Counted from the first letter of the stretch, positions 5,623 to 44,461 are shown. The stretch is DNA of 47,499 bases from a virus (UHGV-0039782), one strand, 5' to 3'. Notes: generated from the letters alone by a model not told the origin. A program made the numbers and translations.

Positions 5623-5651
5623 CTCACCATTTATCGTTAATTGAATCTACA

Positions 5652-6077
5652 TCAATCTACATCTGAAAGCAAGCCAAAATAGAAAAGCGTGGCTTTTTTT
5701 AGTTGCTCAGCTCCGTACGCGATAGCTGCGAACTTGCCTTCTTTATGCGCCCCCTCAAGAAATTTACGCTGGCCTTTTGATACCTGGGATTTCGTTCTAT
5801 CTTCTTTCTTAAGCTCCATTACTGCGCAGGAATGAGCGGCACCATTGCTTAGTATAATTACGTCGCTCACGCCACTTTTTACGCCCATTTTTTTTCTCTT
5901 TATAACGAACTGCGCACCGCTTTTTGTCCCGGTTTCATTTGGAACATGAAACCATATAACGTCAGGGAAGTGATAATCCATCCACAACCCATAAGTCATC
6001 TGTTCCGTTTCCTCTGAATTACACTCTCCACGATAACCACTATCAAATACCCATATACCGCTATCAAGCTGCTTCAC
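5652..6077 (-). CDS. VRR-NUC domain nuclease
   Basis: 141 aa; ...SDVIIL...ELKKEDRTKSQVSKGQRKFLE... matches the VRR-NUC D/E-K core. Confidence 0.5.
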   Translation of the reverse strand: MKQLDSGIWVFDSGYRGECNSEETEQMTYGLWMDYHFPDVIWFHVPNETGTKSGAQFVIKRKKMGVKSGVSDVIILSNGAAHSCAVMELKKEDRTKSQVSKGQRKFLEGAHKEGKFAAIAYGAEQLKKATLFYFGLLSDVD

Positions 6078-7695
6078 TTTGTTCTCCTGTGAAATCTTTG
6101 CGGTGGATTATGTCACGGCCTTTATCGTTGATACGATGCGTGATGCGTTTCGGCGCTTTAATTAATCCCGCATACATCATGAATTGCTTGGCGTTCTGGC
6201 ATTTCAGGATTTTCCCGGCCATTGACTTATCATCAAGGTGAGGGAAGATGGCCTTTGCCTTGAACATGTTTTTCATGTGAGTTGCACCGCCGTAAGGGTA
6301 GAAAACCTCGTTAGCCCAGCCTTCTTTGCCATCACAACGATTAATCCAGTAGCGATATAAAATTCCCTCTCCGTCCTTCGTCAACTGGACTTTGAAGTCC
6401 ATAACATCAGCCCATTCGTTGTCGGTATACGCCCGCTCATTCAGTGCCGCATTCGGATCGCGCAAAACGTGATCGCAATGTCGGCAATAGCGAGCAGTGG
6501 GGTCGTTTTTAGTGCCGCAACCATCATCAAAAATGCGGATTCCGTGCTTATCAAAACCGCAACGGATGTAACTGAAAAACTCCTCGCAACGACCATCTGG
6601 CGACAATGCATCCTTGCCAATGCAGCGGCGAGCATATGGACTGTTCATTGTTCCGCATTTTGGGCACGGAACCTGTTCACCACTGCGTTTTGAACGCTGC
6701 GCCTCAGCTTCTTCAAGAATTGGGTCTTCATACAGCTGACCAAGCTCAAACATCGTGCCAGAGAAATCAAGAACCAGATGGTCTTCTTTATGATACCCGG
6801 CATCAATTTGCTCCTTCTTCAGCAGGCGCATCCCGCGACCAAGCAACTGAACAAGAAGGGTGAGTGACATTATTTTTCGCAATATGACGCTTGTATCCCA
6901 AAGCGGGATATTGACGCCAGTCGTCAAGCAACCAATCTGGAAAACATATTTAATCTTGCCAGTGTATGCGTCTTTTAACGCCTTGCGTCTGGCTTTCTGC
7001 CCCATATCCTCGGTGACGATAGCATAACTTCCTTCGGGTAAATATTTAGCCGCCTCATGACAGTGCTTCTTGCCAGCGCATGTAATCAATACGCCATTTC
7101 TGTTTTTTGTCAGCTCCATAACCTTGAGCATGATTTTCTGCGTGAGGGTTCCTTGCTCAAGGATTTCTTTCTGCATCTGCTTTAGTTGTTCGGCAGTGAA
7201 ATCCTGTGTGCCATCGCTTCCTGATGCCTCAAATGCTGACAGGTCGTAATGCAAATCATCAATGTCATGCAGGCCAAAAATCGTTGGAACAAGGAATCCA
7301 ATATCAACAAGATATTTGGTGTCAATGTTTACTATTTCATTTTTCCAGTAAGCACCCTTAATCGAGTCGGTGCCACGAAACGGACTGCCTGTATATCCAA
7401 TAACAATGACGTCGTGACCGTATTTAGCCTTACATCTGCGGTTAAGTTCAGTCATGATGACGCCATATTGCGTTTCAGGACTTTCACTTATCACGTCCTC
7501 CCAGTTCATCTGGTGGCAGTTATGAGCTACGAATCCATTTGCAACAAAGTTGTGATGGGTAGGCATCTCTATATCCCACACCATTTCATCACCAATTTCA
7601 TTTATTGACTCGATTACTTTTGATTTTGTATTCCACGCCATCTTCCATGTGGTCAGTAATTCTTTTAAAAAACTCATCCTGCGCTTCCTCATCAA
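6064..7695 (-). CDS. intein C-terminal splicing segment (blocks F/G, ...VWDIEMPTHHNFVANGFVAHN|C) fused to SF2 DExH helicase C-extein with C-terminal zinc ribbons
   Basis: HN followed by Cys at residues 59/60; downstream helicase motifs (TGSPFRG, QIGCLTTGVN, LLGRGMRL) and CPKC/CRHC zinc ribbons; the frame is closed by a TAA three codons upstream of the first start. Confidence 0.75.
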   Translation of the reverse strand: MMRKRRMSFLKELLTTWKMAWNTKSKVIESINEIGDEMVWDIEMPTHHNFVANGFVAHNCHQMNWEDVISESPETQYGVIMTELNRRCKAKYGHDVIVIGYTGSPFRGTDSIKGAYWKNEIVNIDTKYLVDIGFLVPTIFGLHDIDDLHYDLSAFEASGSDGTQDFTAEQLKQMQKEILEQGTLTQKIMLKVMELTKNRNGVLITCAGKKHCHEAAKYLPEGSYAIVTEDMGQKARRKALKDAYTGKIKYVFQIGCLTTGVNIPLWDTSVILRKIMSLTLLVQLLGRGMRLLKKEQIDAGYHKEDHLVLDFSGTMFELGQLYEDPILEEAEAQRSKRSGEQVPCPKCGTMNSPYARRCIGKDALSPDGRCEEFFSYIRCGFDKHGIRIFDDGCGTKNDPTARYCRHCDHVLRDPNAALNERAYTDNEWADVMDFKVQLTKDGEGILYRYWINRCDGKEGWANEVFYPYGGATHMKNMFKAKAIFPHLDDKSMAGKILKCQNAKQFMMYAGLIKAPKRITHRINDKGRDIIHRKDFTGEQSEAA

Positions 7696-8661
7696 AAATA
7701 TTTACATAAAACATTTCGCGCTTTTTCGTTCCGCCAATGTAAGAATTAACTCGCGCTCCATTTAATCCAAGAAAATCATTCAATGCATTGGCAACTTCCC
7801 AACATTCATCCCCCGCGAACGCCTCGGTGTGAATGAATACCTGTCTGTACTTGCCGTAAGATATTGATGAATGACCATCATCACCAAAATAAACAGCCCA
7901 ACCAACTTCGTTTAACTCCCTGCATATCTTTCCTATGTCGTACCCATTTGCAGAGTCACCATATTTCTCAGCGTACCTGTCAAGTATCTTTGTGCATGAT
8001 GTTCTAACCTGAAACCATTTATCACCGAATCCCGGATTATCTCTTTCTCTGTATGCTGCATTAAGTTTCTTGAATCTTGCAGCTTTGCACAGAGCGTGAT
8101 CTTTATTTCCCATATTCCACGCCAGTCTGTGCGTTCCCCTTTTTGTGTTCTTAATCAGGCATCCATCACCAGCAAGAGCGGCGAGTATGTTTTGATGCAA
8201 GAAGTCATCAATAACAAGGCCGCTATCAACGGTTGAATTATGATGACCAGACCTAAAATCAACATAGTAACCGTAAGGGTTTTCCAGTAACGCACTCAGC
8301 CCTTTGCTTGTGTGCGGAAAAACCTTTTCGCCACAGCCACACTTGCACGAAGGAGCTTTGTCATAAATCTGTCCGACGAGCCATCTAACGACAGAGTCAT
8401 CCCAGCCTTTAGTTTTCCCGCTTCTACCCAGCAACCGTCTGAATAAAGTTTGTGTGTACTCGTGCATTTTATTTCCTCACCGCCTATTAATTTAACTGAT
8501 GATACACGCTTTATACCATTAGTAAATACTCTTTTTGGTTTGTGGTACATCCATTCGCCAGTAACTTCATCTAAGCACTTGATTTCTTTATTTATTAAAC
8601 TATCGTCATCAATTCTCACCCATCCATCACTCGTTAATATCAGTGCATCACCAGTCAAGCA
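7519..8661 (-). other. intein element inserted in the helicase DExH motif; 381 codons end to end, carried as three ORFs in two frames
   Basis: N-terminal Cys codon at 8659-8661; C-terminal Asn codon at 7519-7521 followed by the Cys +1 codon; both ends share a frame but an in-frame TGA sits at 8296-8298. Confidence 0.6.
7598..8467 (-). CDS. LAGLIDADG homing endonuclease ORF nested in the intein-coding region in a different reading frame
   Basis: two LAGLIDADG motifs about 100 aa apart (ILAALAGDGCL and AVYFGDDGHS); own ATG preceded by GGTGAGG; overlaps the Int-N ORF by 172 nt and the Int-C ORF by 98 nt. Confidence 0.7.
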   Translation of the reverse strand: MHEYTQTLFRRLLGRSGKTKGWDDSVVRWLVGQIYDKAPSCKCGCGEKVFPHTSKGLSALLENPYGYYVDFRSGHHNSTVDSGLVIDDFLHQNILAALAGDGCLIKNTKRGTHRLAWNMGNKDHALCKAARFKKLNAAYRERDNPGFGDKWFQVRTSCTKILDRYAEKYGDSANGYDIGKICRELNEVGWAVYFGDDGHSSISYGKYRQVFIHTEAFAGDECWEVANALNDFLGLNGARVNSYIGGTKKREMFYVNIFDEEAQDEFFKRITDHMEDGVEYKIKSNRVNK

Positions 8662-9144: not shown

Positions 9145-9219
9145 AGCAAATAACCTTTGTTGATGTTTCTACGTCAGTTAGCTTATACTCAATCTACACC
9201 AACAATCAAGGGTAAATTT
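9145..9219. promoter_or_regulatory. divergent control region between helicase and primase genes carrying TCTACGTCA and CAATCTACACC motif copies
   Basis: TTCTACGTCAG at 9167-9177 and CAATCTACACC at 9190-9200. Confidence 0.4.
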
Positions 9220-10173: not shown

Positions 10174-10176
10174 AAG

Positions 10177-10202
10177 AAACCCTCCAGAAGGAGGGTTTTT
10201 CT
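10177..10202. terminator. bidirectional terminator
   Basis: hairpin AAACCCTCC-agaa-GGAGGGTTT followed by TTTTCTT. Confidence 0.65.
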
Positions 10203-10228
10203 TATTCCTTGAACTCTGGCGCTTCAGT

Positions 10229-10648: not shown

Positions 10649-10654
10649 CGCGAA

Positions 10655-12211
10655 TTATTTCAACCTCGGATTAATGTGGACAGTGTTTCCGATAAATACG
10701 CAGTAACCATCCTCTTCAAGTGATGGCAATACACTTGATCTGAGTCGGTCATAAATTTTAGGTATCCCTTTGAATGGTCGCACGTTTTTAAGTGAATCAT
10801 AAAGCCACTTCACCGTTACGCTATTTTTCCCTTTCTGAGCGGCAGAGCGTAGCTTTTCGGCAACAACATCAAACTCCGATCGTTCACCGGCATACCCATT
10901 TGATTCCACGGCGTCGGTGAATGTTTTTGTCAGTGCGTCATAAACACTGATGGCGCGACTAATTTCATTTTCACCGATAATCTTTGAACGCTTTCCTCCA
11001 TCGCACCAGTTTTCAGCAGCGTGAAATATTGCTGCCAGACGGATTATTTGCTTATCAGCTTTACCCATCGCGCCACGAAGAAGAACGTGGTCCCACTTAC
11101 CGCCGGGAAGGAAGTTTTTCTCCCATTGATTTCGCAAAAGGCCGATCATTCTTGCTGAATCGTTGTGAAGCGTAAGTCTTGTTTTTTCTGCTGACACAAC
11201 ATTATGTATAAATCTTGCATATTCCGACCTCAAGCTGTCTGGCATTGGCTTGCTTACAGGGCAATCATTAACCATGTCCCAGTGTTCGCGATAGCCAAGC
11301 ATTGATTGCTCGCGCAACATCAGGAAACGCTCAGAAAGCCCGTTACCCCTGTCGCCAGCGGCAAGAATGGCATCAATACTTTCATCCTGCGCAATCACAC
11401 TTATGTTACCAAGCACGTAACCAGATGAAACGCCACGACCAACACGAGCAGAACCAATAAATCCACCATCCCACCCCTTCAGGATGACTTCTGCGTTTGC
11501 CTTTCCACCTTCCTTGCCGTAAGAGAGTCCAAGACATGTGTTAAGAACGCTGGCCTCGTCACTTATCAGATTAAAAAAACCACCTTCATGGATTGCCTGA
11601 TGCTGAACAGCCTCCGGCGTTGCGTCCGTCAGTGGATATGTGATCGTATAAAGCTCCTCCAGCTTCTCCTTTTCCCGAGCAATATCATCTCCGATTAGTG
11701 CCTTTGCATTCTGGTTGCTGGCCTCCTTATATGCCTTCATCAACTCTTCAATGCGAAGATTTATTTTTATGATCTGCTTTTCCATCTTTTTGGAAAGGTT
11801 GTCATATTCAATCTTTACCGGATTCATATGCATTGAGTTGATAGCGGTTTTCCCTGCTGATGGAGGCTGAGAAGTAACCACGTAAAGAGAAACTGGAAGT
11901 TCTGAATGGTAATACTCAACGCTAAAGTTTCTTGTCATTGCGCTGGCAACGCAACCAAGTAAATGCATGAACGATGTATTTATTGGGAACTGAACGGCGC
12001 GAGCTGCAGCGATTGCATAACGAGACAGCAAGTCAGTCCGGTGCTCACTGGTGAGTTCTGTTTCTGAGTAAGTTACATCGCGCTCCTTACCTTCCTTGAT
12101 GTCAAGCCACATGTTAGAACTTGGTGTCATGCCATGATGGAAGGCAACGCGAGCCGGAGATACTTTTAACTCCCTTGCTTCGTTGAAGATGTCTTGAGCT
12201 GTGATCATCAT
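10655..12211 (-). CDS. P-loop replication protein (DUF3987 / VirE-like); candidate initiator or helicase loader
   Basis: 518 aa with a P-loop-like YVVTSQPPSAGKT; sits directly beside the iteron/AT-rich region. Confidence 0.45.
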   Translation of the reverse strand: MMITAQDIFNEARELKVSPARVAFHHGMTPSSNMWLDIKEGKERDVTYSETELTSEHRTDLLSRYAIAAARAVQFPINTSFMHLLGCVASAMTRNFSVEYYHSELPVSLYVVTSQPPSAGKTAINSMHMNPVKIEYDNLSKKMEKQIIKINLRIEELMKAYKEASNQNAKALIGDDIAREKEKLEELYTITYPLTDATPEAVQHQAIHEGGFFNLISDEASVLNTCLGLSYGKEGGKANAEVILKGWDGGFIGSARVGRGVSSGYVLGNISVIAQDESIDAILAAGDRGNGLSERFLMLREQSMLGYREHWDMVNDCPVSKPMPDSLRSEYARFIHNVVSAEKTRLTLHNDSARMIGLLRNQWEKNFLPGGKWDHVLLRGAMGKADKQIIRLAAIFHAAENWCDGGKRSKIIGENEISRAISVYDALTKTFTDAVESNGYAGERSEFDVVAEKLRSAAQKGKNSVTVKWLYDSLKNVRPFKGIPKIYDRLRSSVLPSLEEDGYCVFIGNTVHINPRLK

Positions 12212-12447
12212 GAAATCCTTTTTACGTAAACCATATCTTTATCAGGGTATCCAACCTTTGTTGAGAATTTCATGCCTTCATTCCTGCGCATGAAATAGTT
12301 TAATGCGTTCCTCAGGCTTGCAATACCTCCAAACCTCTTCGAGTTAATCATCACAGTCTCCCCTACTGAAACAACAGATAACCCAGAAAGAGCTGCATTC
12401 TTTTTGCCGTACTTATCAAGTTTCACAAAATCCTCCAACAGCAACAA
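12208..12447 (-). CDS. hypothetical small protein next to the origin-like region
   Basis: 79-aa ORF with a 4-nt overlap with the downstream gene. Confidence 0.3.
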   Translation of the reverse strand: MLLLEDFVKLDKYGKKNAALSGLSVVSVGETVMINSKRFGGIASLRNALNYFMRRNEGMKFSTKVGYPDKDMVYVKRIS

Positions 12448-12500
12448 ATTATTATTGAATCATATCATAACTATTGAATCATGCAACATCAAATACGACT

Positions 12501-12548
12501 CACGTGGGTAACGTGGGGCAGCCGTGGGGAATACCACCTTCCCCACGA
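12501..12548. repeat. left iteron cluster (CGTGGGG x3 plus inverted CCCCACG)
   Basis: direct repeats at one-helical-turn spacing. Confidence 0.55.
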
Positions 12549-12685
12549 ACTTTTACTCTAAGTATATGTAATATAATAAAATTATTATTATTTGGGTTAA
12601 TGGGTAATATTATTATTCATATTATAGATAGTAATTAACATAATATTAACAAATGGATTATTTGAATATATTTATAAGGGGATGG

Positions 12686-12800
12686 GTATGAAATCTGCCC
12701 CACTTACCCAAACATGTTAAAAGCCGCATGGCACAAGGGTTTCCTGTGGGGCATACCACCTTCCCCACGACCTGCCCCACGGACAAAAATTTACCCCACG
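12686..12800. repeat. right iteron cluster (CCCCAC/CCCCACGG x4 plus GTGGGG)
   Basis: copies at 12689, 12762, 12774 and 12794; opposite orientation to the left cluster. Confidence 0.55.
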
Positions 12801-12823
12801 GACACGTTTTTAATGAGTTGCTG

Positions 12824-12852
12824 TTGACGTAGAATCATCATTGATGTAGATT
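12824..12852 (+). promoter_or_regulatory. sigma70-like promoter for the rightward small-gene block
   Basis: TTGACG (12824-12829), 17-bp spacer, TAGATT (12847-12852); both hexamers lie inside copies of the dispersed TTGAYGTAGA motif. Confidence 0.5.
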
Positions 12853-12882
12853 GAACTCATCGGAACAAACGAGGGTGAAGAG

Positions 12883-13068
12883 ATGAAAGAAGAAAGCACG
12901 TACAGCATCGACCAGATGAAGTTGTTCAGCGATATATGCATGGCATTGTCACAACAGGTTCCAAGTCTTCCTGCTGACATGCGCTCAAATGCAATCATTG
13001 ATGCAGCAAACATGATTTGCGAGGCATATGCGATGAGTGAAGATGAATACAAGGCCTCTAAGAAATGA
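12883..13068 (+). CDS. hypothetical small protein
   Basis: 61-aa ORF, SD GAGGGTGAAGAG upstream. Confidence 0.45.
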   Translation: MKEESTYSIDQMKLFSDICMALSQQVPSLPADMRSNAIIDAANMICEAYAMSEDEYKASKK

Positions 13069-13616: not shown

Positions 13617-14161
13617 GTGAAGTTAAGCGTTATGAATGTAATGGATCATCATCAGTATTTGAATGCGAAAATGGAAGTCTTGTTGATTATGTAGACTACG
13701 CAGCACTAGAGGCTAAATGCGCGGCGCTGGCAGCGGAATTGAAGCAAATCAGGATTGACGCCGACTGCTACAAGAAGGGCATGGAAGCGTCAAATTCTCG
13801 ACTGGTGCAACTGGCTGCGGAGAATGCGGCACTGAAGGCAGCGCATCCTCAACCATTCGGGCATGAGATGATGAAGGCTCTTGATGCGTATGAGAAGCAT
13901 CAGGATGAAGTTCCAGAGACTGGAATGCTTGATGCATTTTTTATCTTGCGCGACAGCATCCGTGCTGAAACCCAAGCCACCGATGCTTTCCTGGATGAAG
14001 TTCTGGCGCAGGGGGTAGAGATGTTTGCACAGTGGTGTAGAGGTGAGCGCGATTTTACTCTCATTGATGAGGATGTTGCTGATGCAGCGGCTTATGAAGA
14101 ATGCGTAAAAAGAGCTGAATATTTCGCCGCACAGCTTCGCAAAGGAGTTGATCAAAAATGA
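13613..14161 (+). CDS. hypothetical protein with a coiled-coil segment
   Basis: 182-aa ORF, coupled to neighbours. Confidence 0.45.
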   Translation: MSEVKRYECNGSSSVFECENGSLVDYVDYAALEAKCAALAAELKQIRIDADCYKKGMEASNSRLVQLAAENAALKAAHPQPFGHEMMKALDAYEKHQDEVPETGMLDAFFILRDSIRAETQATDAFLDEVLAQGVEMFAQWCRGERDFTLIDEDVADAAAYEECVKRAEYFAAQLRKGVDQK

Positions 14162-14505: not shown

Positions 14506-14568
14506 CTACCCGTTCATATTGATTATCAGTTCGCTCTATGTGGCGCACTATTTAGTGGAGATATTGAG

Positions 14569-17447: not shown

Positions 17448-17522
17448 ATCTGCATCATCACACTTGACCAATCTACACCGAGCGCATAGTATATCTACAT
17501 CAGGATTACCGGAGATATCACT

Positions 17523-18489: not shown

Positions 18490-18510
18490 CCATATACCAT
18501 CCATGATATA

Positions 18511-18536
18511 ATCCCTCCATCGTGAGGGATTTTTTA
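18511..18536 (+). terminator. factor-independent terminator upstream of the portal gene
   Basis: ATCCCTC-catcgt-GAGGGAT followed by TTTTTATT. Confidence 0.6.
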
Positions 18537-19959: not shown

Positions 19960-20890
19960 CGCCAGACTTCCACAACCGCGCATATCGCAGAGTCTGGCAG
20001 ACCCATTAGGCGCTGCAACCCGCCTGTCGAAGATGGACAAGGTGATAACGCGCAAATACAAGCAACTCAGGACTCGTTCGCTTGAGTTGTTTCGCACTAT
20101 TCCAAGCAGTCAGGCTAACGCAGAATCAAGCGGTCTGTATTTCTACGATTTCAGTAGTGCGCGCGCAGCTACATTCATGGATGAGTTACAGACACTGATT
20201 GACGAGATTCTGCTTGAAGGTGATGATTTCGGTCACGGCAGGATGTGGGCTAACGTGTTCATCGGTGATGCTTATCAGGCCGGAACGCAGAAGGCTAACT
20301 CAGAACTGTCAAGCCTGTCTCCTGTTTATGCCGAGCAAAGGCCGATTGCCGCGATACTCTACAGTGAGCCTTACCTGAATCGGCTCCAACTGGCGTACAC
20401 AGCCGGATACTCAGACTGGCGCGGATTGAGTGATTACTCCCGCCGGCAACTGGCATCTGTCATCATGGAAGGCATTGCCCGTGGTGCTAATCCTCGTGAT
20501 GTTGAGGATGACATCGTCAAGCGTGTGGATGTGTCGCATAGCTACGCTAAGCAGGTAGCGCAGACAGAAATCACCGGAACGCTGCGGCAGGCTAACAGGC
20601 GTGAAGTCATTGAGGCGCGAGAAGAGTTAGGCATTGAAACGGTGATGCTGTGGCAGTCGGCATTGATGCGCACGACTCGCCAAACGCACGCGGCGAGACA
20701 TGGAAGGTTTTACACGCCAGAAGAGATTGACACGTTCTATAGTGAGAATGGCAATAGATATAATTGCCACTGCGCACAAACCCCAGCATTGCTAATGGAT
20801 GGTAAGCCAGTCATTCTTGAGTCGTCACAGGAAAGGCTTGATAAGCAGCGTGAAGTGTGGCAATCAGCAAACAAAAAGCCCTCTAAGTGA
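19934..20890 (+). CDS. head morphogenesis protein (SPP1 gp7 / Mu F-like)
   Basis: conserved C-terminal motifs of the Phage_Mu_F family ([15 protein letters not shown]); starts inside the portal 3' end. Confidence 0.75.
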
Positions 20891-20903
20891 GGGCTTTGAT
20901 TTA
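20874..20903. terminator. hairpin terminator overlapping the MuF-like gene stop codon
   Basis: AAAAAGCCCTC-taagt-GAGGGCTTTGATTT. Confidence 0.5.
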
Positions 20904-23007: not shown

Positions 23008-23090
23008 TTGATGTAGATACTATGCACCACTGCTCAATCTACGTCAACATCATTGTGATAGAATTAATCATTATTTGAACGGGAGGCAGA

Positions 23091-24181: not shown

Positions 24182-24673
24182 ATGGAAACAGTACTCAGTA
24201 GATACTGGCGACCCCTGGCAATTATTATAATTGTTGCAGCTGGCGCGCTGTGGATTCGCGGGGAGGTTATAGAGTACGGCGACCAGCGATACGCAGAAGG
24301 CAAGGCTCAAGCAATCGCAGAGCAAAAGGCCGCAGACGAACAAGAGGAGCAACGACGCAATGCAGAACTGCAAAAGATTCAGGCAGACGCACAGCAAAGG
24401 ATTGACGCTGCGCGCAATGATGCTGTTAATGCTGCTGCTAAGTCTGGCAGGTTGCAGCAACAACTCGCAAATATCCGCAAGCAGCTCGTCGGATATTCCA
24501 CCGCTGAGTCCATTGGCAATCCAGCCGCAGAAACCGGGGTTTTGCTCTCCGACATGCTCAGCAAATCTGTCGAAAGAAATCGACAACTGGCAGATTATGC
24601 TGACAGGGCAAGAGAAGCAGGATTAGCGTGCGAGGCGCAGTATAATTCGTTACGCAATAAAAAAGCCCCGTAA
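24182..24673 (+). CDS. Rz: i-spanin (Rz-like)
   Basis: N-terminal TM (LAIIIIVAAGALWI), long Gln/Ala-rich coiled coil, position after the endolysin. Confidence 0.65.
   Translation: METVLSRYWRPLAIIIIVAAGALWIRGEVIEYGDQRYAEGKAQAIAEQKAADEQEEQRRNAELQKIQADAQQRIDAARNDAVNAAAKSGRLQQQLANIRKQLVGYSTAESIGNPAAETGVLLSDMLSKSVERNRQLADYADRAREAGLACEAQYNSLRNKKAP
24417..24626 (+). CDS. Rz1: o-spanin (Rz1-like) embedded in the +1 frame of Rz
   Basis: lipoprotein signal MMLLMLLLSLAGC with a lipobox, Pro/Ser-rich mature part. Confidence 0.6.
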   Translation: MMLLMLLLSLAGCSNNSQISASSSSDIPPLSPLAIQPQKPGFCSPTCSANLSKEIDNWQIMLTGQEKQD

Positions 24674-24687
24674 TGGGGCTTGTGTTT
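24661..24687. terminator. bidirectional terminator after Rz
   Basis: AAAAGCCCC-gtaat-GGGGCTTGTGTTT. Confidence 0.65.
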
Positions 24688-26298: not shown

Positions 26299-26396
26299 AT
26301 TTACTACTCCTTCTCGAAAAACATCTTGACGTTTCTACATCACTTAGTCAATACTTGTTGACGTAGATTGTACCACAACGGAAAAGGTGATGTGGA

Positions 26397-26805: not shown

Positions 26806-27056
26806 CAGCGCCACATATGCCGATGATGAATGATGATGGGCTGCTGGAGTGTCCATTTTGCAATAGTGATGATGTGTATCCTGACTCTGATTTAGAAGGG
26901 AAGAAGCATTTTATTTGGTGCGGGAATTGCGGTTGTGGAACAGGAGTAAGACCTAACAAGCCATCAGCTGTACGCAAATGGAACACCCGCAACGGACACC
27001 TATACACCGCTGATGACTTCAATCAGGCAGCAGAGGAGCGCGATTATGGATTATAA
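26793..27056 (+). CDS. Lar-family restriction-alleviation-like zinc-ribbon protein
   Basis: LLECPFCNSDD...WCGNCGCGTG motif arrangement characteristic of Lar-family proteins. Confidence 0.45.
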   Translation: MDKMTAPHMPMMNDDGLLECPFCNSDDVYPDSDLEGKKHFIWCGNCGCGTGVRPNKPSAVRKWNTRNGHLYTADDFNQAAEERDYGL

Positions 27057-27534
27057 ATCGCAAATCATGCGCGTGATTGTAAATCACCCCGGCGCAACGC
27101 GCGCATACATTGAGAAGAATTGTGGTGGAAAGCATTCAAGCACCACAACGCATCGCCTGCATGAGATGCTTGCGCTTGGTTTTATTCGCCGAGAGAAGTC
27201 CGTGATTCGTGGCGGTAAATGGCAGTACAAGTATTTCATCTCTGATGATGCGGCAGGTATTGATGATGCGATTAAATGCCATTTGCTTGATAACGCAGGA
27301 GCAGAAGTGAAAGAAATTAGTGCTACCACTGGCATTGATTATCGCATCGTGAAAAGCCGCATTCGCATTATGTTTCATAACGGCGATGTGACGCGAAGCT
27401 ATGACCACCACAAGAAGCTGTGGCGTTACTCATGGCAGAAGCGGGAAGTTAACGTCAGCAACCTGTTTAATTCACTTCTTCGCAATGTAAGAGGTCATCA
27501 TGGGGAAAGTCAAACGCAAGAAGCAAGAGTATGA
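27046..27534 (+). CDS. hypothetical winged-helix-like protein
   Basis: ATG at 27046 overlapping the Lar-like gene stop. Confidence 0.4.
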   Translation: MDYKSQIMRVIVNHPGATRAYIEKNCGGKHSSTTTHRLHEMLALGFIRREKSVIRGGKWQYKYFISDDAAGIDDAIKCHLLDNAGAEVKEISATTGIDYRIVKSRIRIMFHNGDVTRSYDHHKKLWRYSWQKREVNVSNLFNSLLRNVRGHHGESQTQEARV

Positions 27535-29059: not shown

Positions 29060-29114
29060 CTCTGTATATCTTTTGTTCATCATGGGCTGCTATCATTTAA
29101 TCAGGAGGTAGCCC

Positions 29115-29237
29115 ATGAACATAATCCCTATCACTTACTTTCTCACGCTATACGCACTCACCAATTCGCCATTATTTGCGCTGGCTACCGCCTCATGGTG
29201 CTATATCTCCCTGTGTTATAATTCGACCACAAACTAA
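29115..29237 (+). CDS. 40-aa hydrophobic peptide with a consensus SD (AGGAGG)
   Basis: MNIIPITYFLTLYALTNSPLFALATASWCYISLCYNSTTN. Confidence 0.25.
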   Translation: MNIIPITYFLTLYALTNSPLFALATASWCYISLCYNSTTN

Positions 29238-33346: not shown

Positions 33347-33371
33347 AAAGCCCCGCAAGGGGCTTTGGTTT
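33347..33371. terminator. bidirectional terminator (ends the plus head block and the minus operon)
   Basis: AAAGCCCC-gcaa-GGGGCTTTGGTTT. Confidence 0.7.
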
Positions 33372-33555: not shown

Positions 33556-34097
33556 ACAATCCTCATCGGCATAACAACAATCTTCGCAGTCTCGCCAGAT
33601 GGCGCGCTAAGACAGCAAACTGCGGCATTTGTATTTCCATTCAACTCAAACTTAACGCCACTGAATTTAGGATTAAACAGCTTTGCCACTTTCTCAATAT
33701 CAACCAGATAACCAGCATTGAAGCCAATTTCATCTGCTGCTTTCGTTTCCTTTGGTATAACGCGATCAATATCAGGGAATCGACCATCAATCTCTTCGCA
33801 GATACCAGCACCAACCATCGTGTCCATATGACCAAAATGATAAGTAACGATTCCAGATTTTGTATCGATGATCGCATGGTTATATTTCTTTGTCGGAGAC
33901 TTGCTTACCTTTACAATCACATTTTCTGTCAGCTTATTGTCATGACTACCACCAATGAATGCGCGATGACCGTCAGTTGAGGCAATGCGACCATCAGGCA
34001 TGAAGCAGATACCATTCAGGTAATAACGCACATCATTGCGAGCCTGAAATATTAATGCTGATTCAAGTAATAATTTGCTGATTTTTAGTTTCATCAC
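33552..34097 (-). CDS. truncated DNA polymerase III beta sliding-clamp (DnaN) homologue lacking domain I
   Basis: 181 aa; collinear matches to E. coli DnaN domain II-III segments as I recall them: DVRYYLNG...TDGHR, DGRFPD..RV.PK, EIGFN..Y..D, AKIVVMPMRIV versus AAYVVMPMRL. Confidence 0.65.
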   Translation of the reverse strand: MMKLKISKLLLESALIFQARNDVRYYLNGICFMPDGRIASTDGHRAFIGGSHDNKLTENVIVKVSKSPTKKYNHAIIDTKSGIVTYHFGHMDTMVGAGICEEIDGRFPDIDRVIPKETKAADEIGFNAGYLVDIEKVAKLFNPKFSGVKFELNGNTNAAVCCLSAPSGETAKIVVMPMRIV

Positions 34098-34455: not shown

Positions 34456-34661
34456 CGCATCTTCTCCATCTTCTCGCGCTTCTTAAGACACTGTTTGCAT
34501 ATTGCGTCAGGCTTCCATGCTGATATATCTTCTCTTTCTCCACCAAACATCCATTTCCCACATTCACTAATAATCCTCCCATCGCTGAAATGGTGAACCT
34601 TCTTAGCCAGTAATGGGCCTCCCCATCCTGCAACTAACTTATCATCACGCTCGTTCATCAC
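34452..34661 (-). CDS. hypothetical zinc-ribbon protein
   Basis: CGKW...CKQC motifs. Confidence 0.4.
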   Translation of the reverse strand: MMNERDDKLVAGWGGPLLAKKVHHFSDGRIISECGKWMFGGEREDISAWKPDAICKQCLKKREKMEKMR

Positions 34662-35467
34662 ATCTTCTCCAGAATTGCCATAACCTCGTGAATATCAGCA
34701 ACAGGAATCTGGATAAACTCCTCATCCTCAGCCACCACGTGACCAGCAGGGAGAATCACATGGTCGGCTGGCTTCAGTAACTCAATCAGGCGGTCTACCG
34801 GCTTAATCTTTTTCGACTTCAACACCTTCGCCGTGACCTTATCCTTGCCTTGCGCCTTCGCCTCTTCGACTGCTTCGTCGATAACTTTTACCGCATCATC
34901 GCCATGCTCACGCGTCACTGCTACGGCATTTGCATAACTGATTTGCCCGGCACTGATGCGTGCTTTTACTTCTGCTGGCACATCACCCAGCGACAGATGC
35001 ATTTGCACGTCAGATACTGAGCGGCCTACCTTTTTGGCGATTTCTTCATTCGTCCAGCCAAAGCCTTTAAGCCGCGTGTAAGCCTTTGCGCGTTCAAACG
35101 GGTCAAGATGCTTACCCTGACTGGATGACACCATGAAGGCGATTTTATCCGCCTCATCGCCAGTGAAATCCTTGCACTCAATACGAACGATTGGCGCTCC
35201 ACGTTCAATGGCACGCAATGCGCCGAGATAGCGATGCTGACCATCAAGAATGCGGATTCCCTTCTCGTCCGGAATAACTGTTAATGCTGGCAATGGCTGA
35301 CCTGATTCCCAGCACTGAGCGAAATATTCAACGTGTTGCTCGTCTGCTTCGCGGATGTTGTATCCCGGCTCCAGATAGATTTGCTCCACTGGCACGAGAT
35401 AGGTTTTGTTAACAGCGATGCCGTTGCGCGTTTCTTTGTCTGAATAGATTTTGCTTAGTGTTTTCAT
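34658..35467 (-). CDS. ParB/Srx-like nuclease-domain protein with HTH
   Basis: ParB N-terminal domain signature GIRILDGQHRYLGA and a helix-turn-helix (EEIAKKVGRSVSDV). Confidence 0.65.
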   Translation of the reverse strand: MKTLSKIYSDKETRNGIAVNKTYLVPVEQIYLEPGYNIREADEQHVEYFAQCWESGQPLPALTVIPDEKGIRILDGQHRYLGALRAIERGAPIVRIECKDFTGDEADKIAFMVSSSQGKHLDPFERAKAYTRLKGFGWTNEEIAKKVGRSVSDVQMHLSLGDVPAEVKARISAGQISYANAVAVTREHGDDAVKVIDEAVEEAKAQGKDKVTAKVLKSKKIKPVDRLIELLKPADHVILPAGHVVAEDEEFIQIPVADIHEVMAILEKM

Positions 35468-35772: not shown

Positions 35773-35773
35773 A

Positions 35774-36228: not shown

Positions 36229-36268
36229 TTACATCACCTCTAACATTTATTGTTGTTTCTACGTCATC

Positions 36269-36297
36269 ACTATAAACACACTATCAATCTACGTCAA
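36269..36297 (-). promoter_or_regulatory. sigma70-like promoter for the minus-strand operon 36228-33370
   Basis: on the minus strand TTGACG (plus 36292-36297), 17-bp spacer, TATAGT (plus 36269-36274); the -35 lies inside the CAATCTACGTCAACA motif. Confidence 0.55.
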
Positions 36298-36344
36298 CAG
36301 TAATATGCTAAAATCATGCTAATCAAACAACAGGAGATTTAAGT

Positions 36345-38701: not shown

Positions 38702-38704
38702 ATA

Positions 38705-38727
38705 AAGCCGCATGAAGCGGCTTTTAA
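38705..38727. terminator. hairpin terminator shared by the plus tail-terminator gene and the minus-strand tRNA
   Basis: AAGCCGC-atgaa-GCGGCTT followed by TTAATTT. Confidence 0.6.
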
Positions 38728-38729
38728 TT

Positions 38730-38806
38730 TGGTGGACGCGGAAGGATTTGAACCTTCAATCAGCCGATTATGAGTCGGTTGCTTTAACCAATTAAGCTAC
38801 GCGTCC
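38730..38806 (-). tRNA. tRNA-Met (anticodon CAU, elongator-type; could be tRNA-Ile2 if lysidine-modified), with CCA encoded
   Basis: hand-folded cloverleaf: 7-bp acceptor GGACGCG/CGCGTCC, D-arm GCTT/AAGC, anticodon loop CUCAUAA (CAU at plus 38770-38772), T-arm GAAGG-TTCAAAT-CCTTC, 3' ACCA. Confidence 0.8.
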
Positions 38807-38840
38807 ATAAGTGCTGGTTTAAGCATTGCCAGCGTGCTTT

Positions 38841-38906
38841 CTTAATATCCAGCCCCGTAACCCATACATACCCCTACATATGATTGCGATAATGCTGGAT
38901 ATTAAG
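38841..38906. repeat. 13-bp perfect inverted repeat CTTAATATCCAGC / GCTGGATATTAAG with a 40-bp spacer
   Basis: arms at 38841-38853 and 38894-38906, next to the tRNA. Confidence 0.5.
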
Positions 38907-39164
38907 TGTTGTGGTTGCGGGATTCTAACCCGCATTGGACGTCTTTGCGTAATCGCACGCCAGCCTTACTAATTTGGCGAAACCACAACGGCAAAAGCAC
39001 TTTCATCGCTGCAACATGACGGTAAATAGGATTCACTGCATCACGTACAAAATACTCTTGCCTGTTGTGTGCCGGTTGCGCGTCCGGCGTCTCTCGATCG
39101 CTAATTGTAATTGAAGGATTGGATGTAATTAAATGAAATCATGGAACCAATCTCTGTTAAATCT

Positions 39165-39208
39165 AAGTCTACACCACAAAATATCACTGTCAACACCTGT
39201 GATATAAT
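39165..39208 (+). promoter_or_regulatory. promoter-like region for the major tail gene (TCTACACC and GTCAACACC motif elements plus TATAAT)
   Basis: TATAAT at 39203-39208; AATCTACACC and TGTCAACACC upstream, the same arrangement as at 40568-40618. Confidence 0.4.
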
Positions 39209-39244
39209 CACCACGTTAGCAGCTAACACAATTCGGAGATCGAA

Positions 39245-39961: not shown

Positions 39962-39970
39962 TAAATAAAA

Positions 39971-39993
39971 AGCCCCGAAAGGGGCTTTGTTTT
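39971..39993. terminator. bidirectional terminator
   Basis: AGCCCC-gaaa-GGGGCT followed by TTGTTTT. Confidence 0.7.
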
Positions 39994-39994
39994 A

Positions 39995-40344: not shown

Positions 40345-40535
40345 TTCTTGTCGTCACTCTTAACCAATGCCCAAACAAGTGCCGCAACCCAACCAATAAA
40401 GCTCCACCCGACAAGAATATTCAGCACACAGATTGCGGTTGTATTTGTGTGCTTTCGTTGCAATGCCACAAATGACGGGAGAAGATAAACAAATACAACC
40501 AATCCAGCAAAAAGAAACAAAATAACAACATCCAT
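40341..40535 (-). CDS. superinfection immunity-like small membrane protein (Imm_superinfect family)
   Basis: LPSFVALQRKHTNTTAICVLNILVGWSFIGWVAALVWAL matches the LP...H...N...GW..GW...WA signature. Confidence 0.6.
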   Translation of the reverse strand: MDVVILFLFAGLVVFVYLLPSFVALQRKHTNTTAICVLNILVGWSFIGWVAALVWALVKSDDKK

Positions 40536-40567
40536 AACTCACCTCATTCATCACTCGTTTCGATGAC

Positions 40568-40618
40568 TTGAATCTACATCACCACCTCGCAGGTGTCAAC
40601 ACCACTGAGATGATATAA
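40568..40618 (+). promoter_or_regulatory. promoter-like region for the chaperone and tape-measure genes
   Basis: TTGAATCTACATCA (40568-40581), GTGTCAACACC, TATAAT at 40613-40618. Confidence 0.35.
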
Positions 40619-40648
40619 TCAACATCAGTCAAATTCAGGATGCAAAAC

Positions 40649-41356: not shown

Positions 41357-43728
41357 TGGCTGAAGAAGTCGGCGGAATTGTCTATGAAGTCGGGATGGAT
41401 GTTAAAGGTCTGAAAGCTGGCGCGACAACAGCCAATAAGACTTTGGACGACCTTGAATCATCAACCAACAAAACCACAAATGCGCTTGGCAAGTTGGATA
41501 AAAACGCCAGAAATGCTGGCAACGGGATGAAGAATGCTGGCGGCGCAGCTTCAGTACTCAAGACCAGTATGTCGATGCTGGCTGGCGCAATATCCGTGTC
41601 ACTGATTATCGAATGGGGCAAGCGATTCCTTGAGGTTGCCGATAACATGACACAGCTTCAGGCAAGGATTGCTCGCCTGTCAACTGATGCAAAAACCGCG
41701 AACGAAACATTCAGCGCACTGGCAAATATCGCCTCAACCACTGGTGCAAGCCTCAGCGATACCACGAAGCTGTGGGAGACATTGACGTCATCACTGAAAG
41801 AGGCTGGCGCTACAAATGCGCAGGTTCTCAACCTTACAGATACCCTGCAAAAAATAGGTCGAATCGGCGGATCATCAACCGAAGAAATGGCGAACGCATT
41901 ACGTCAGTTCGGTCAGTCAATCGCATCTGGCACAATCCGCGCCGAAGAATTTAACTCCATTCTTGAGCAGATGCCTGAACTTGCACGCCAGATAGCAGCA
42001 GGTCTTGGCATCTCTATGGGTGAACTTCGCGCCAGAATGCTTGACGGCAAGCTGACGGCAGAAGATGCACTGAATGCAATTCAGGACAGGACAAGCGTTG
42101 TCAATGCTGAGTTCGCAAAACTACCTCGCTCTATATCTCAGGCCACTGGCAGTCTTGAAACATCATTTGCAAAAATGATAGCAAGCATAAACGAAGCAAC
42201 TGGAGCCAGTTCCACTTTTGTTTCCGTTATTGACTCCATCACTTCAGCAATAAACAGACTTACTGGTCAAACTGTAAGTGCGGCAGAGGTTATTTCTGAT
42301 TTGACATCAACTGCCGAAATGTTCAGTCGCAGGGCAAGAACCTGGTCATGGGTTGGCATTGACGGATGGGCGGCACAAAATCGGGCGATAGCGGCGGTAG
42401 CAAATCAGGCTGCAACTTTGGTATCAGACATGGATGCTGTAACGAAGTCAACAGGAGAAGCAGCAAAAGCTCAGGCGCATTTAACAGTGCCGAAAGCGGC
42501 TGAGAAGGACAAAAAGAAAAAAGGAAAAAGCGCCGAAGAACGGCAAGCTGAGTCAGTAGCTGAAAAGCTGGAGAAACTACGCCAGCAAACCATGCTCAAT
42601 GCCACATCTACCAGCGAACTATCACGCGAGCAAGCAATCCTCAACGCGCAGCAATCGCTTGGAAAAGCTGCCACTCAGGAGCAGATAAAACTGGCTGGTG
42701 AGTATGCTGCGAAGATTTGGGACCAGAAGAATGCATTGAAGGAACAGGCGGAAGCTGAGAAAGAAAGGCAGCGCGTAGAAAAATCATATCAAGGGTTGCG
42801 CGCTATTGCGTCACCAACGACTGGCATTGACACTGAATACCAGCAACGCATGGCTGACCTTGACGCCTACGCCGCAGCGTATCCGCAGAAAATCACAGAG
42901 ATTGAGCAGACTCGCGCAGCAATTGAAGCGCAATATCGCCAGCAGCGAATGGACGCCATGTGGGCTGAGTGGCAGCAGCAAAGCCTCGGCGCTCAACTTT
43001 TCGGCACTGCGCTTGATTCGGCAATGAGCACAGCATCAAACAGCATTACCGGATTGCTGACAGGCACAATGAGCGTTCAGGATGCCATGCGCAGTCTCGG
43101 CTCTACGGTGCTAAATAGTGTTGTTGATACGTTCGTGCAAATGGGCGTTGACTGGGTAAAATCTGCGGTTATGGGGGAGACTGCACAGGTTGCGGCTACG
43201 GCAACCACAACGGCGGCGCAAACGGCAGGACTGGCAACCACAACAGCAGCATCCACTGCGGCGGCAGCCACCACCACGGCAGCATGGACTCCTGCGGCAA
43301 TCGTAGCGTCAATCGGCTCATTCGGCGGTGCGGCTGCAATTGGTGTAGGTGCTGTTCTCGGGGCGCTGGCAATGGGTATCGCTGGCAAGCGCAAAAATGG
43401 TGGCCCTGTTAGTGCCGGAAGTATGTACGAAGTGGGCGAGAATGGCTTGCCTGAGATATTCCAGGCGTCCAATGGTCGCCAGTACATGATTCCCGGCAAC
43501 GATGGCTCAGTTATCAGCAACAAAGACATTACCGGAGGTGGCAGTGGCGTTGTGGTTTATAATAATGTTTACAATAACTCAAGCAATGCTAGCGCAACAA
43601 GCAGGGCCACTGATAACGGTGATGGTTCGATAACTATTGAGACATTTATATCCGATATGAATGAAGGCGGACCGATGAGCCAATCTATCTCAAGAAACTT
43701 TAATACCAACAGGAGAGCAACAGAGTAA
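41356..43728 (+). CDS. tail tape measure protein
   Basis: 790 aa; Ala/Gln-rich coiled-coil repeats, Ala/Thr-rich TM-like stretch, position. Confidence 0.85.
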   Translation: MAEEVGGIVYEVGMDVKGLKAGATTANKTLDDLESSTNKTTNALGKLDKNARNAGNGMKNAGGAASVLKTSMSMLAGAISVSLIIEWGKRFLEVADNMTQLQARIARLSTDAKTANETFSALANIASTTGASLSDTTKLWETLTSSLKEAGATNAQVLNLTDTLQKIGRIGGSSTEEMANALRQFGQSIASGTIRAEEFNSILEQMPELARQIAAGLGISMGELRARMLDGKLTAEDALNAIQDRTSVVNAEFAKLPRSISQATGSLETSFAKMIASINEATGASSTFVSVIDSITSAINRLTGQTVSAAEVISDLTSTAEMFSRRARTWSWVGIDGWAAQNRAIAAVANQAATLVSDMDAVTKSTGEAAKAQAHLTVPKAAEKDKKKKGKSAEERQAESVAEKLEKLRQQTMLNATSTSELSREQAILNAQQSLGKAATQEQIKLAGEYAAKIWDQKNALKEQAEAEKERQRVEKSYQGLRAIASPTTGIDTEYQQRMADLDAYAAAYPQKITEIEQTRAAIEAQYRQQRMDAMWAEWQQQSLGAQLFGTALDSAMSTASNSITGLLTGTMSVQDAMRSLGSTVLNSVVDTFVQMGVDWVKSAVMGETAQVAATATTTAAQTAGLATTTAASTAAAATTTAAWTPAAIVASIGSFGGAAAIGVGAVLGALAMGIAGKRKNGGPVSAGSMYEVGENGLPEIFQASNGRQYMIPGNDGSVISNKDITGGGSGVVVYNNVYNNSSNASATSRATDNGDGSITIETFISDMNEGGPMSQSISRNFNTNRRATE

Positions 43729-43732
43729 AAAA

Positions 43733-43752
43733 ATAAGCCCCTCACGGGGCTT
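43733..43752. terminator. bidirectional terminator
   Basis: AAGCCCC-tcac-GGGGCTT with a T-run on the minus side. Confidence 0.6.
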
Positions 43753-43756
43753 TACT

Positions 43757-44407
43757 TTAAATCTTGTCAGCGCATTTGCGTACAACCCTCGGTATCGTTT
43801 CTTTCAGTTCATCCCATGAGTTGACCGCTTCCATATCCAGAAGTGTGACAAGAGACTTCTGGATATCACTGCGTAACTGGTTAGTTTTTGCATCCTGAGA
43901 GTCCCATGTGTCAAACCCAGTAACTTCACGGATATCTATCGACTCCTTGACTGACTTTGCCACCTGAATGAAATGCCCACTATGACCAATCCTACCCTCA
44001 GTGCGTTCAAGCATTCTGCTAACGGCAGCATTAAGTTCCACGAAACTTACCGCACCAATATTTCGCAACTCAACCTGTCTCTGCGTAATGAATCGGTCGA
44101 TGACAAGGAAATGGAAATATGTGCTGTATTGCTCTGCTATATAGACAGCCAGATGCAAGCAAGCAAAAGTGGAACCATTCCTGCCTCGCGTTGATTTTAT
44201 TGCGCTATCGATACCTAGTTGCTTTTCGCACTCAGACTTGAAATCCTTGAATGCATCAGTTGCCATTACCTGCCGTATTTCTCTTGTCCCCATCCCATTA
44301 TCCAGTCTCCAGCGGTTCATCTGGTTAACAAGGTCATTAACGTTAATAAAATTTTCACGGTCGAAAGTAATTTCTCCGTACGGGAACTCTAATGTTTGCA
44401 GTTTCAT
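43757..44407 (-). CDS. KilA-N domain protein (antirepressor-like moron)
   Basis: GRNGSTFACLHLAVYIAEQYSTYFHFLVIDRFI fits the KilA-N G..G(S/T)(W/F)...LA...A...S..F...V.D pattern. Confidence 0.45.
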   Translation of the reverse strand: MKLQTLEFPYGEITFDRENFINVNDLVNQMNRWRLDNGMGTREIRQVMATDAFKDFKSECEKQLGIDSAIKSTRGRNGSTFACLHLAVYIAEQYSTYFHFLVIDRFITQRQVELRNIGAVSFVELNAAVSRMLERTEGRIGHSGHFIQVAKSVKESIDIREVTGFDTWDSQDAKTNQLRSDIQKSLVTLLDMEAVNSWDELKETIPRVVRKCADKI

Positions 44408-44437
44408 GATTATTTCTCCTGTTTAATGTGACAATTA

Positions 44438-44461
44438 AATTCTACATTCAAATGTAGAATT
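44438..44461. promoter_or_regulatory. perfect 24-bp palindromic operator-like site AATTCTACATTCAAATGTAGAATT
   Basis: half-sites TTCTACAT / ATGTAGAA belong to the dispersed TCTACRT motif family; 30 nt upstream of the KilA-N start. Confidence 0.5.

Follow-up and report, generated by a model that had tools for sequence, protein, structure and literature searches.

A clade-wide 13-bp motif at predicted sigma-70 promoters of the non-structural modules of an enterobacterial siphophage, and its possible second reader

Introduction

Promoter-associated sequence elements that recur within one genome are known from several phages and plasmids. Lambda CII binds sites of the form TTGC-N6-TTGC that straddle the -35 element. 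The T7 promoters A1-A3 and the T5 early promoters are strong, near-consensus sigma-70 promoters with 17-bp spacing that drive early genes. In the T4 middle promoters a phage box near -30 is combined with a sigma-70 -10 element, sigma is appropriated by AsiA, and extended -10 promoters are insensitive to loss of the -35. The KorB operators (OB) of IncP plasmids and the N15 centromere sites are read by ParB-family helix-turn-helix (HTH) proteins, with about a dozen sites of ~13 bp near promoters and a role as global transcriptional regulator. In mycobacteriophage L5 operator and early-promoter -35 overlap. Stoperators of the L5 type are 13 bp long and asymmetric, occur in many copies at promoters and in short intergenic gaps, are oriented with transcription and are bound by a monomeric repressor (PMC9283540). 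Here we analyse a dispersed motif, first noticed in a preliminary description as the 10-mer TTGA(C/T)GTAGA, in the viral DNA UHGV-0039782 (47,499 nucleotides; the whole stretch is called the window). We propose, with a probability of about 0.5, that the motif is the shared core of host sigma-70 promoters for the non-structural modules and is also read by a second, clade-specific factor.

The window has a G+C content of 46.5% and matches, as a mosaic at ~88-91% nucleotide identity, a large group of ~45-48-kb enterobacterial siphophages that includes Shigella phage DS8, Escherichia phage C1 (Deseoctovirus), swi2 (Swiduovirus), IME207, Sf11 and Salmonella phage Vi II-E1. It is a ~47-kb virulent siphophage of the DS8/C1/swi2/Vi-II-E1 group; no integrase is present in the annotation of the relatives, and swi2 has been reported to be virulent (PMC8185280). 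Several hundred sequenced phages make up the clade, among them the Vi-typing phage E1, Shigella phage Sf11 and many therapy or biocontrol isolates, and 200-300 database records match the window.

The fullest form of the motif, TTGA-N6-TTGA, is, like the lambda CII site, a direct repeat one helical turn apart over the -35; however, the central YGTAGA is the most conserved part here and is free in CII sites, good hexamers are already present, and no CII-like gene was seen in the window. The T7 and T5 promoter sets are not known to share a 13-mer in which -35-like and -10-like hexamers are fused and which serves in two registers and recurs within spacers and at starts. As a phage promoter/operator family the motif would be known in kind, while a literature search by phage names and sequence strings gave no description of the motif itself, and the GenBank record of phage E1 annotates other repeats and leaves this one unmarked.

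Results

The motif and its position at divergent junctions

Enrichment against shuffled sequence confirmed that the dispersed motif is real: TTGAYGTAGA occurs seven times as an exact match against 0.12 expected, a count reached by none of 100 shuffles, and 18 times with one mismatch allowed (5.7 expected). The core GRYGTAGA is present in 20 copies (3.75 expected) and TGRYGTAGA in 15 (1.4 expected). Of the 20 core copies 15-16 are intergenic, in ~2.9 kb that make up 6% of the window (binomial P ~6e-15 for 15), and the four clearly intragenic ones equal the number expected by chance. The positions listed earlier were right within 1 nt; the tandem copy at 5656-5663(-) proved to be a weak, partial one that is not conserved in relatives. 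Alignment of the 15 intergenic copies gave the consensus tTGRYGTAGAWWSA, which has no dyad symmetry and whose information content spans ~13-14 bp, from the T preceding the core to the A four bases past it. The unit of the repeat is a 13-14-mer and not a 10-mer. It consists of a -35-like hexamer (TTGAYG) abutting a -10-like hexamer (TAGAWW), and because the two halves abut, a single copy cannot supply both elements of one promoter. Two flavours recur, TTGAYGTAGATTGA and TGAYGTAGAAAC(a/g)(a/t)CAA, the latter always just 5' of a ribosome-binding site. When the 14-mer TTGACGTAGATTGA was searched in IMG/VR, at least 120 stretches matched, of which 73 unrelated ones were single, chance-level and mostly coding matches, and no enrichment was seen there.

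Opposite-strand gene modules are interleaved in the window, with eight divergent and eight convergent junctions between them. The motif had been placed at nearly every module boundary; it is indeed present at all eight divergent junctions, on the non-structural side only; four junctions have all their copies in one orientation, which in each case is toward that side. The convergent junctions (8/8) carry G+C-rich hairpins with T-runs instead of the motif; these are flanked by A- and T-runs, several are of the form AAAGCCCC...GGGGCTTT, and they look like bidirectional terminators.

Convergent-junction hairpins: 3021-3054, 10175-10200, 20875-20897, 24663-24681, 33347-33366, 38704-38724, 39969-39988 and 43735-43752.

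Sixteen of 18 copies are co-oriented with the downstream gene, which has a ribosome-binding site and an ATG or is a tRNA gene, and the copy closest to each gene always lies 21-39 nt 5' of the ATG. The exceptions are 17472 and 17494, which point into the 3' end of the terminase gene.

Sigma-70 geometry of the motif loci

The loci at which the motif meets predicted promoter hexamers are as follows.

P_A, 5644..5672, (-) strand: TTGCTT-17-TAGATT, with the -10 from copy 5646-5655(-).
P_B, 9168..9209, (-) strand: two direct copies, 9193-9202(-) and 9168-9177(-); best hexamers TTGATT-16-TATAAG.
P_C, 12824..12852, (+) strand: TTGACG-17-TAGATT, with copy 12824-12833(+) as the -35 and copy 12841-12850(+) as the -10.
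P_D, 17464..17503, entered without strand: rightward TTGACC-17-TAGTAT (17464-17492).
P_E, 23008..23047, (-) strand: TTGACG-17-CATAGT (23047-23019), with copy 23038-23047(-) as the -35.
P_F, 26323..26367, both strands: rightward TTGACG-18-AATACT (26326-26355) and leftward TTGACT-17-CAAGAT.
P_G, 36258..36297, (-) strand: TTGACG-17-TATAGT (36297-36269), with copy 36288-36297(-) as the -35.
P_H, 39165..39193, (-) strand: TTGACA-16-TAGACT, with copy GGTGTAGAC (39165-39175) as the -10.
P_I, 40571..40599, (-) strand: TTGACA-17-TAGATT, with copy 40573-40582(-) as the -10.
P_J, 44437..44468, (-) strand: TTGCAA-18-TAGAAT, 5' of the KilA-N-like gene.

A hexamer was accepted as partner -10 if it had A at position 2, T at position 6 and at least 4/6 matches. 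Three of the four intact TTGACG copies have such a hexamer exactly 17 bp downstream (TAGATT at 12847, TATAGT at 36269-36274 and CATAGT at 23019-23024), against a background frequency of 0.062. Conversely, three left-degenerate copies (GTGATG, GTGGTG, TTGATG) have TTGACA or TTGACG 16-17 bp upstream (40594-40599, 39188-39193 and 12824-12829), where the background is 0.02; at P_C the two copies serve as partner of each other. The layout found, with 16-18 bp between a -35-like hexamer and a -10-like one that has A2 and T6, is that of sigma-70 promoters. Nine motif loci passed a consensus promoter scan at 9-10/12 matches, and the scan also recovered both promoters earlier described as textbook ones, 12824-12852 (TTGACG-17-TAGATT) and 36297-36269 (TTGACG-17-TATAGT). 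Host sigma-70 polymerase very probably starts the non-structural transcripts at the motif loci: partner spacing, conserved hexamers with free mid-spacers in 16-32 orthologues, and co-oriented genes all agree with the earlier suggestion of host-polymerase promoters in a conserved context. The polymerase would use copies in the -35 register, with a -10 element 17 bp downstream, at P_C, P_E and P_G, and in the -10 register, with TTGACA or TTGACG 16-17 bp upstream, in the second copy of P_C and at P_H, P_I, P_A and P_J.

The genes behind these loci are non-structural. P_A, in which TTGATGTAGATTCA is invariant in eight genomes, serves the DUF7448/exoVIII/Erf/SSB recombination genes, and P_B serves HNH/helicase genes, with copy 9193-9202 in its spacer and copy 9168-9177 five nt past its -10. 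P_C drives a rightward small-gene operon that begins at 12883. At P_D two opposite-strand copies lie just past the -35 (17470-17479, core 17472-17479) and just past the -10 (17494-17503). P_E, with an inverted copy (23008-23017(+)) at its predicted start site, serves a small leftward module. P_F consists of overlapping divergent promoters with copy 26334-26343(-) within both spacers and copy 26358-26367(+) at the predicted rightward start site; P_F-right serves a small-gene operon with Lar-like and MarR-like genes, and P_F-left a small leftward module. P_B, too, may on a reading of its sequence have two overlapping opposite-strand promoters. P_G drives the operon that runs from anti-restriction through ParB-like to RusA genes; its second copy (36258-36267(-)) begins 2-3 nt past the -10 and opens an invariant 5' untranslated region (5'UTR). 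P_H points to tRNA-Met (38730-38806(-)), and P_I drives a leftward module of three small genes including DUF551, with counterparts at 13896 in Klebsiella phage KpnS_VR6602 and at 14031 in Salmonella phage CF-SP1.

P_J differs in form. The perfect palindrome reported at 44438-44461 was found at 44437-44462, with 12-nt arms that are 100% complementary around a 2-nt gap; it is made of two inverted ATGTAGAAT half-copies and is the only palindromic version of the motif. The gene behind it, an open reading frame (ORF) earlier named as KilA-N, does match that family, just below the Pfam cut-off; the P_J/KilA-N module is common only to the window and phage E1.

Two observations adjoin these loci. In swi2 a two-gene antisense insert (gp36/gp35; 33594-33889) follows the terminase gene, with TTGAAG-17-TAGAAT as a motif-type promoter of its own; in the window the orthologous copies, at 17472 and 17494, point at the terminase 3' end and have no gene to serve. 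Between P_H and tRNA-Met lie ~350 nt with few ORFs (38807-39165(-)), where relatives have tRNA-Arg and tRNA-Met and where Rfam gave no match.

Copies outside the hexamers

Nine copies have no partner hexamer at all. Some fall within a spacer that belongs to another predicted promoter (9193, 26334 and the one copy that P_B version B has) and others 2-5 nt past another promoter's -10 (36258, 9168, 23008, 17494 and 26358), which puts the predicted start inside the motif or close to it. Beside a -35, P_C, P_E and P_G have the copy in direct orientation (TTGACG-TAGATTG); P_D, and the P_F-right of several relatives, have it inverted (TTGACC-AATCTAC). We know of no base-specific polymerase contact that would account for TAGATT at -29..-24 or TGRYG at -17..-13. 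An extended -10 reading of TGAYG was rejected because its TG, at -17/-16 or, when Y is T, at -14/-13, is out of register with TGn, which needs -15/-14. A role at the RNA level was likewise rejected, since the copies occur in both orientations relative to transcription; Rfam finds only tRNA.

It could be that every copy is a self-sufficient -10-type promoter (TGRYG plus TAGAWW), used by host polymerase with a phage sigma-like or sigma-appropriating factor or an activator, much as the late or middle promoters of T4 are used; its coincidence with sigma-70 -35 boxes would then allow dual early and later use. The asymmetry of the motif and the 16 of 18 copies that point at a gene fit this proposal, as do the orphan copies 21-39 nt 5' of start codons and the lack of a -35 partner at 26358, 36258, 9168 and 26334. 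However, the partner hexamers are conserved (TATAG in 32/32 orthologues of P_G), which indicates that canonical recognition is in use; 17472 and 17494 aim into the 3' end of the terminase gene, a copy that is flipped between clades keeps its place, and Pfam gave no sigma, anti-sigma, MotA or AsiA homologue among the ~50 proteins. We regard this account as quite improbable.

Conservation among relatives

The motif had been proposed to be a phage-specific family, which did not hold: TGAYGTAGA occurs in 10-15 copies in each of 12/12 clade genomes, at orthologous junctions and against less than one expected. Among the motif-bearing genomes are those of Klebsiella phage KpnS_VR6602, Vibrio phage pYD38-A and Salmonella phage CF-SP1, with proteins that typically share 40-85% identity with those of the window. 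Phages 9NA and Kp4856-1 have zero copies; 9NA has the same interleaved architecture.

Orthologous promoters keep their hexamers while the spacer drifts, as sigma-70 promoters would. Among 32 orthologues of P_G the -35 is TTGACG in 31 and TATAG is present in all 32, and the 11-nt mid-spacer has 22 variants. The non-hexamer TAGATT after the -35 is identical in 29/32, the 3-4-nt gap after the -10 has five variants, and the second copy is TGAYGTAGAAAC in 30/32, followed by the invariant 5'UTR. Among 16 unique orthologues of P_C, TTGACGTAGAAT is invariant, the mid-spacer has seven variants and the upstream sequence comes from at least five unrelated families. At P_I the twelve spacer bases beside the -35 are wholly different between clades and TGAYGTAGATT persists, and at P_F the substitutions in the orthologous copies fall solely on degenerate motif positions. 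Past the -10 of P_E the window has an inverted copy, and KpnS_VR6602 has a direct one at the same place. That phage also has TTGACG-17-TATAGT ahead of two operons, and TTGACA-17-TAGATT ~25 nt 5' of tRNA-Arg, the same arrangement as at P_H.

Bases outside the hexamer in use are thus as conserved as the hexamers, and neighbouring spacer bases vary freely. Because of this, and because extra copies in one or the other orientation occupy spacers or predicted start sites, we slightly favour the view that a second, clade-specific factor reads the whole 13-mer. The orphan copies and the constrained bases outside the hexamers also make the single phage regulator suggested earlier plausible. A pure sigma-70 promoter family with no second reader, spread by cassette duplication and with the extra bases tuning strength, is the rival account that we take most seriously, though we doubt it. 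Each copy would then be a sigma-70 element, whether as a hexamer in use or as a promoter module of tandem, auxiliary or relic kind. The partner hexamers are present, the copy nearest each gene is always 21-39 nt 5' of the ATG, the variants in the -10 register shift toward TATAAT, and a search of the ~50 proteins gave no regulator. The promoters are also visibly paralogous: P_C and P_I share GATGTAGATTsAAsTCATCGrAAC, P_D and P_E share CATAGTAT(A)TCTACATCA, and P_D and P_F-right share TTGACCAATCTACACC. Such a family would, on the other hand, leave TAGATT at -29..-24 and TGRYG at -17..-13 with no known polymerase contact, although these bases are held across clades whose proteins are only ~60-80% identical while adjacent spacer bases are free, and it would not account for orphan copies that have no partner, one of which has flipped orientation in place.

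Several further points weigh against a promoter core that is also read by a second factor. A literature search gave no transcription start, binding data or transcription map for any clade member. The spacing between paired copies is variable (10-31 bp) and there is no dyad, which is unlike the usual sites of HTH dimers or of ParB. The promoters are clearly paralogous (P_C/P_I and P_D/P_E, each pair alike from the -10 into the transcript start), so that common descent may account for part of the similarity. Some copies in the -10 register drift toward TATATT or TAGTTT, which fits a plain -10 function better than an operator, and P_B has a version (D) that is without the motif, so that this promoter would work without it. 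Promoters as such are not enriched: a generic scan found 35 against 37.6 expected overall, which makes individual hexamer assignments soft. The -10 elements of P_B and P_F-left are uncertain, and the -35 of P_A matches the consensus at only 3-4/6 positions, for which reason P_A is not listed by the promoter scan.

Mosaic joints at the cassettes

P_B has four alternative versions among relatives, of which A, B and C carry the motif in the spacer; version B has a single copy, TTGACG-ATGATGTAGAATCATTG-TAATTT. The P_G 5'UTR (36229-36262) is invariant in 32 relatives and is followed by at least six unrelated first genes, with the mosaic joint exactly at the start codon. Such joints raise the question of whether the cassettes are mainly recombination linkers or by-products of mosaicism, with promoter activity incidental. 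Mosaic joints do coincide with cassettes, as in the alternative first genes after P_G, the unrelated sequence directly upstream of TTGACG in P_C and the four versions of P_B, and the inserted module of swi2 carries its own motif-type promoter. Joints at promoters are expected anyway, however, because promoters are conserved islands. Moreover, an identity of 13 bp is short for recombination of the Erf/exonuclease type, copies repeated within one genome, direct or inverted, would promote deletions and inversions, and both the hexamer geometry and the gene orientation would be left unexplained. We therefore give the linker account very little credence.

Candidate readers of the motif

Pfam and PHROG profiles identified only four DNA-binding candidates among the ~50 proteins, namely a ParB/KorB-like HTH protein, a MarR-like protein, a KilA-N-like protein and an HNH-AP2 endonuclease. 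They gave no repressor-like, sigma, anti-sigma, MotA, AsiA or L5-repressor-like protein, which is a further point against a second reader. The first and third candidates are encoded as follows.

34658..35467, (-) strand: ParB/KorB-like HTH protein, encoded in the P_G operon; candidate reader.
43757-44407, (-) strand: KilA-N-like ORF (Pfam KilA-N, E=4.9e-5, just below the cut-off).

The second of these ORFs has conflicting annotations, KilA-N by Pfam and 'amidase' by PHROG 6095. The MarR-like protein (27013-27534) was rejected as reader: it is missing from ECO95 1-6-1, which keeps 14 copies of the motif, and its identity is only 37-38% in those Klebsiella and Vibrio phages whose motif is identical. 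None of the host regulators FNR, CRP, IHF, MetJ, CpxR, DnaA and Cra fits in register, in an informal comparison by eye with their consensus sequences.

The ParB-like protein is present in every motif-bearing genome and is the only universal candidate. It matches the profiles HTH_ParB (3.6e-11) and KorB (7e-6) and the structures of Spo0J (1vz0, 8e-13) and KorB (8qa8, 5e-3). Its identity is 98-99.6% in the close clade, where the DNA is ~88-90% identical, and 80-86% in distant clades, with an invariant HTH; it is among the best-conserved proteins and not unique in that. Kp4856-1, which lacks the motif, has a homologue that is 48% identical and differs in its recognition helix; both the protein and the motif are missing from 9NA. 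Against ParB as reader, its GERRxR box is degenerate and reads GQHRYL, and other conserved single-copy palindromes exist, e.g. 14531-14552. An altered GERRxR box may affect binding of cytidine triphosphate. A k-mer search of Kp4856-1 for another dispersed motif that would match its divergent ParB-like protein gave nothing obvious. That the ParB-like protein is the reader is a tentative proposal that we consider unlikely.

A second promoter class and a possible early-to-late switch

Structural and lysis modules are preceded by promoters of a different class from the motif promoters, an extended -10 (TGnTAnAAT) without a -35. These sites are conserved in distant clades, even where the flanks diverge.

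TGnTAnAAT sites, all (+) strand: 879-887, 18504-18512, 23056-23064, 29214-29222, 36306-36314, 39200-39208, 40611-40619 and 44546-44554.

Four junctions have a motif promoter and a TGnTAnAAT site placed back to back, 9-14 bp separating the -35 of the leftward one from the extended -10 of the rightward one. The two classes would split the genome into -35-dependent and -35-independent units.

If the 13-mer is read by a second factor, binding would most likely repress, because these promoters match the consensus as they stand and each copy overlies a -35, a -10, a spacer or a start site. Once the host polymerase has used the copies as promoter hexamers when infection begins, an early phage protein would occupy the 13-mers at the promoter cores and shut off the non-structural (early or middle) units. 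This shut-off would relieve the structural modules' extended -10 promoters, which abut or overlap the motif promoters, from competition. It is conceivable, though in our estimate improbable, that this virulent clade runs a global early-to-late switch by way of an asymmetric 13-mer that mimics a -35/-10 pair in fused form and lies at ~10 promoter cores, with the ParB/KorB-like protein as the best candidate for its agent.

Other non-coding elements

Of the non-structural units, only the helicase-like operon that ends at 12447 lacks the motif. Its predicted promoter, TTGATG-17-TATGAT at 12464-12492(-), lies beside a direct repeat of TATTGAATCAT (12448-12482). The non-coding region of 375 bp at 12448-12823 contains eight CCCCAC(G) copies in both orientations around an AT-rich core (repeat cluster 12512-12804). 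In the same slot KpnS_VR6602 has GAGTTCCC iterons and CF-SP1 has GGATAA repeats, and the adjacent helicase-like gene (10655-12211) is likewise clade-variable. The region is probably a replication origin with a cognate initiator module. As a site of the ParB-like protein the cluster was rejected in favour of an origin, because the iterons co-vary with the helicase-like gene and the HTH of the ParB-like protein is invariant.

Just 5' of the portal gene, at 18504-18531, TGATATAAT overlaps the 5' arm of a T-run hairpin (CCCTCC...GGGATTTTTT), an arrangement kept in 12 genomes. Read-through transcripts could form the terminator, and transcripts begun at this promoter would miss the 5' arm. Inside the rightward small-gene operon the palindrome AGTGCGC-N8-GCGCACG (14531-14552) is nearly invariant in 11 aligned sequences, and the Klebsiella and Vibrio phages share its core. 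It may serve as an operator or a parS-like site, or form a hairpin in RNA. A conserved hairpin at 29074-29120, CATGGGCTGC...GTAGCCCATG, encloses AGGAGG after the last small gene of P_F-right and ahead of the head genes, and may act in translational or processing control.

Discussion

Together with the extended -10 class, the motif provides a testable transcription map of ~10 non-structural and ~8 structural promoters. It also explains the sites of mosaic exchange and supplies compact, portable promoter cassettes for engineering. Should a regulator read the 13-mer, it would offer a single handle on the whole early programme, and should that regulator be the ParB-like protein, a widespread class of phage proteins now without a function would gain one. 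A lytic phage would then have a regulon of the KorB or stoperator kind, with a ParB-family protein on a non-palindromic site.

Judged from sequence, the motif family would best be filed under none of the compared systems, because several of their defining features are not found here. Closest in form are the operators and stoperators of the cluster A (L5-type) mycobacteriophages: the motif is likewise 13 bp long, asymmetric and multi-copy, with an orientation tied to transcription. In contrast to those, the 15-18 copies here lie nearly only in the promoter cores of operon starts and not between genes inside operons. Copies between co-directional genes are found only at 5646 and 17472/17494, both on predicted promoters, which is not the in-operon placement, in short gaps between genes, at which L5-type sites block elongation. 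Profile search found no gp71-like repressor among the ~50 proteins, the phage is described as virulent, and the orientation is not strict. Closest in candidate protein is the KorB/OB regulon, since the window too encodes a ParB/KorB-like HTH protein, in a motif-driven operon. Unlike OB and parS sites, which are palindromic, this motif has an asymmetric position matrix; the GERRxR box is altered as described above, and no ParA or KorA partner was seen in the window. As compared to the T4 middle promoters, the box differs in sequence from the MotA box (TGCTTtA), the -35 is canonical, the motif also occurs at -10 and +1, and neither MotA nor AsiA has a homologue by Pfam. In logic, the division of T4 into -35-dependent and -35-independent promoters is nevertheless the closest described counterpart of the two promoter classes of the window.

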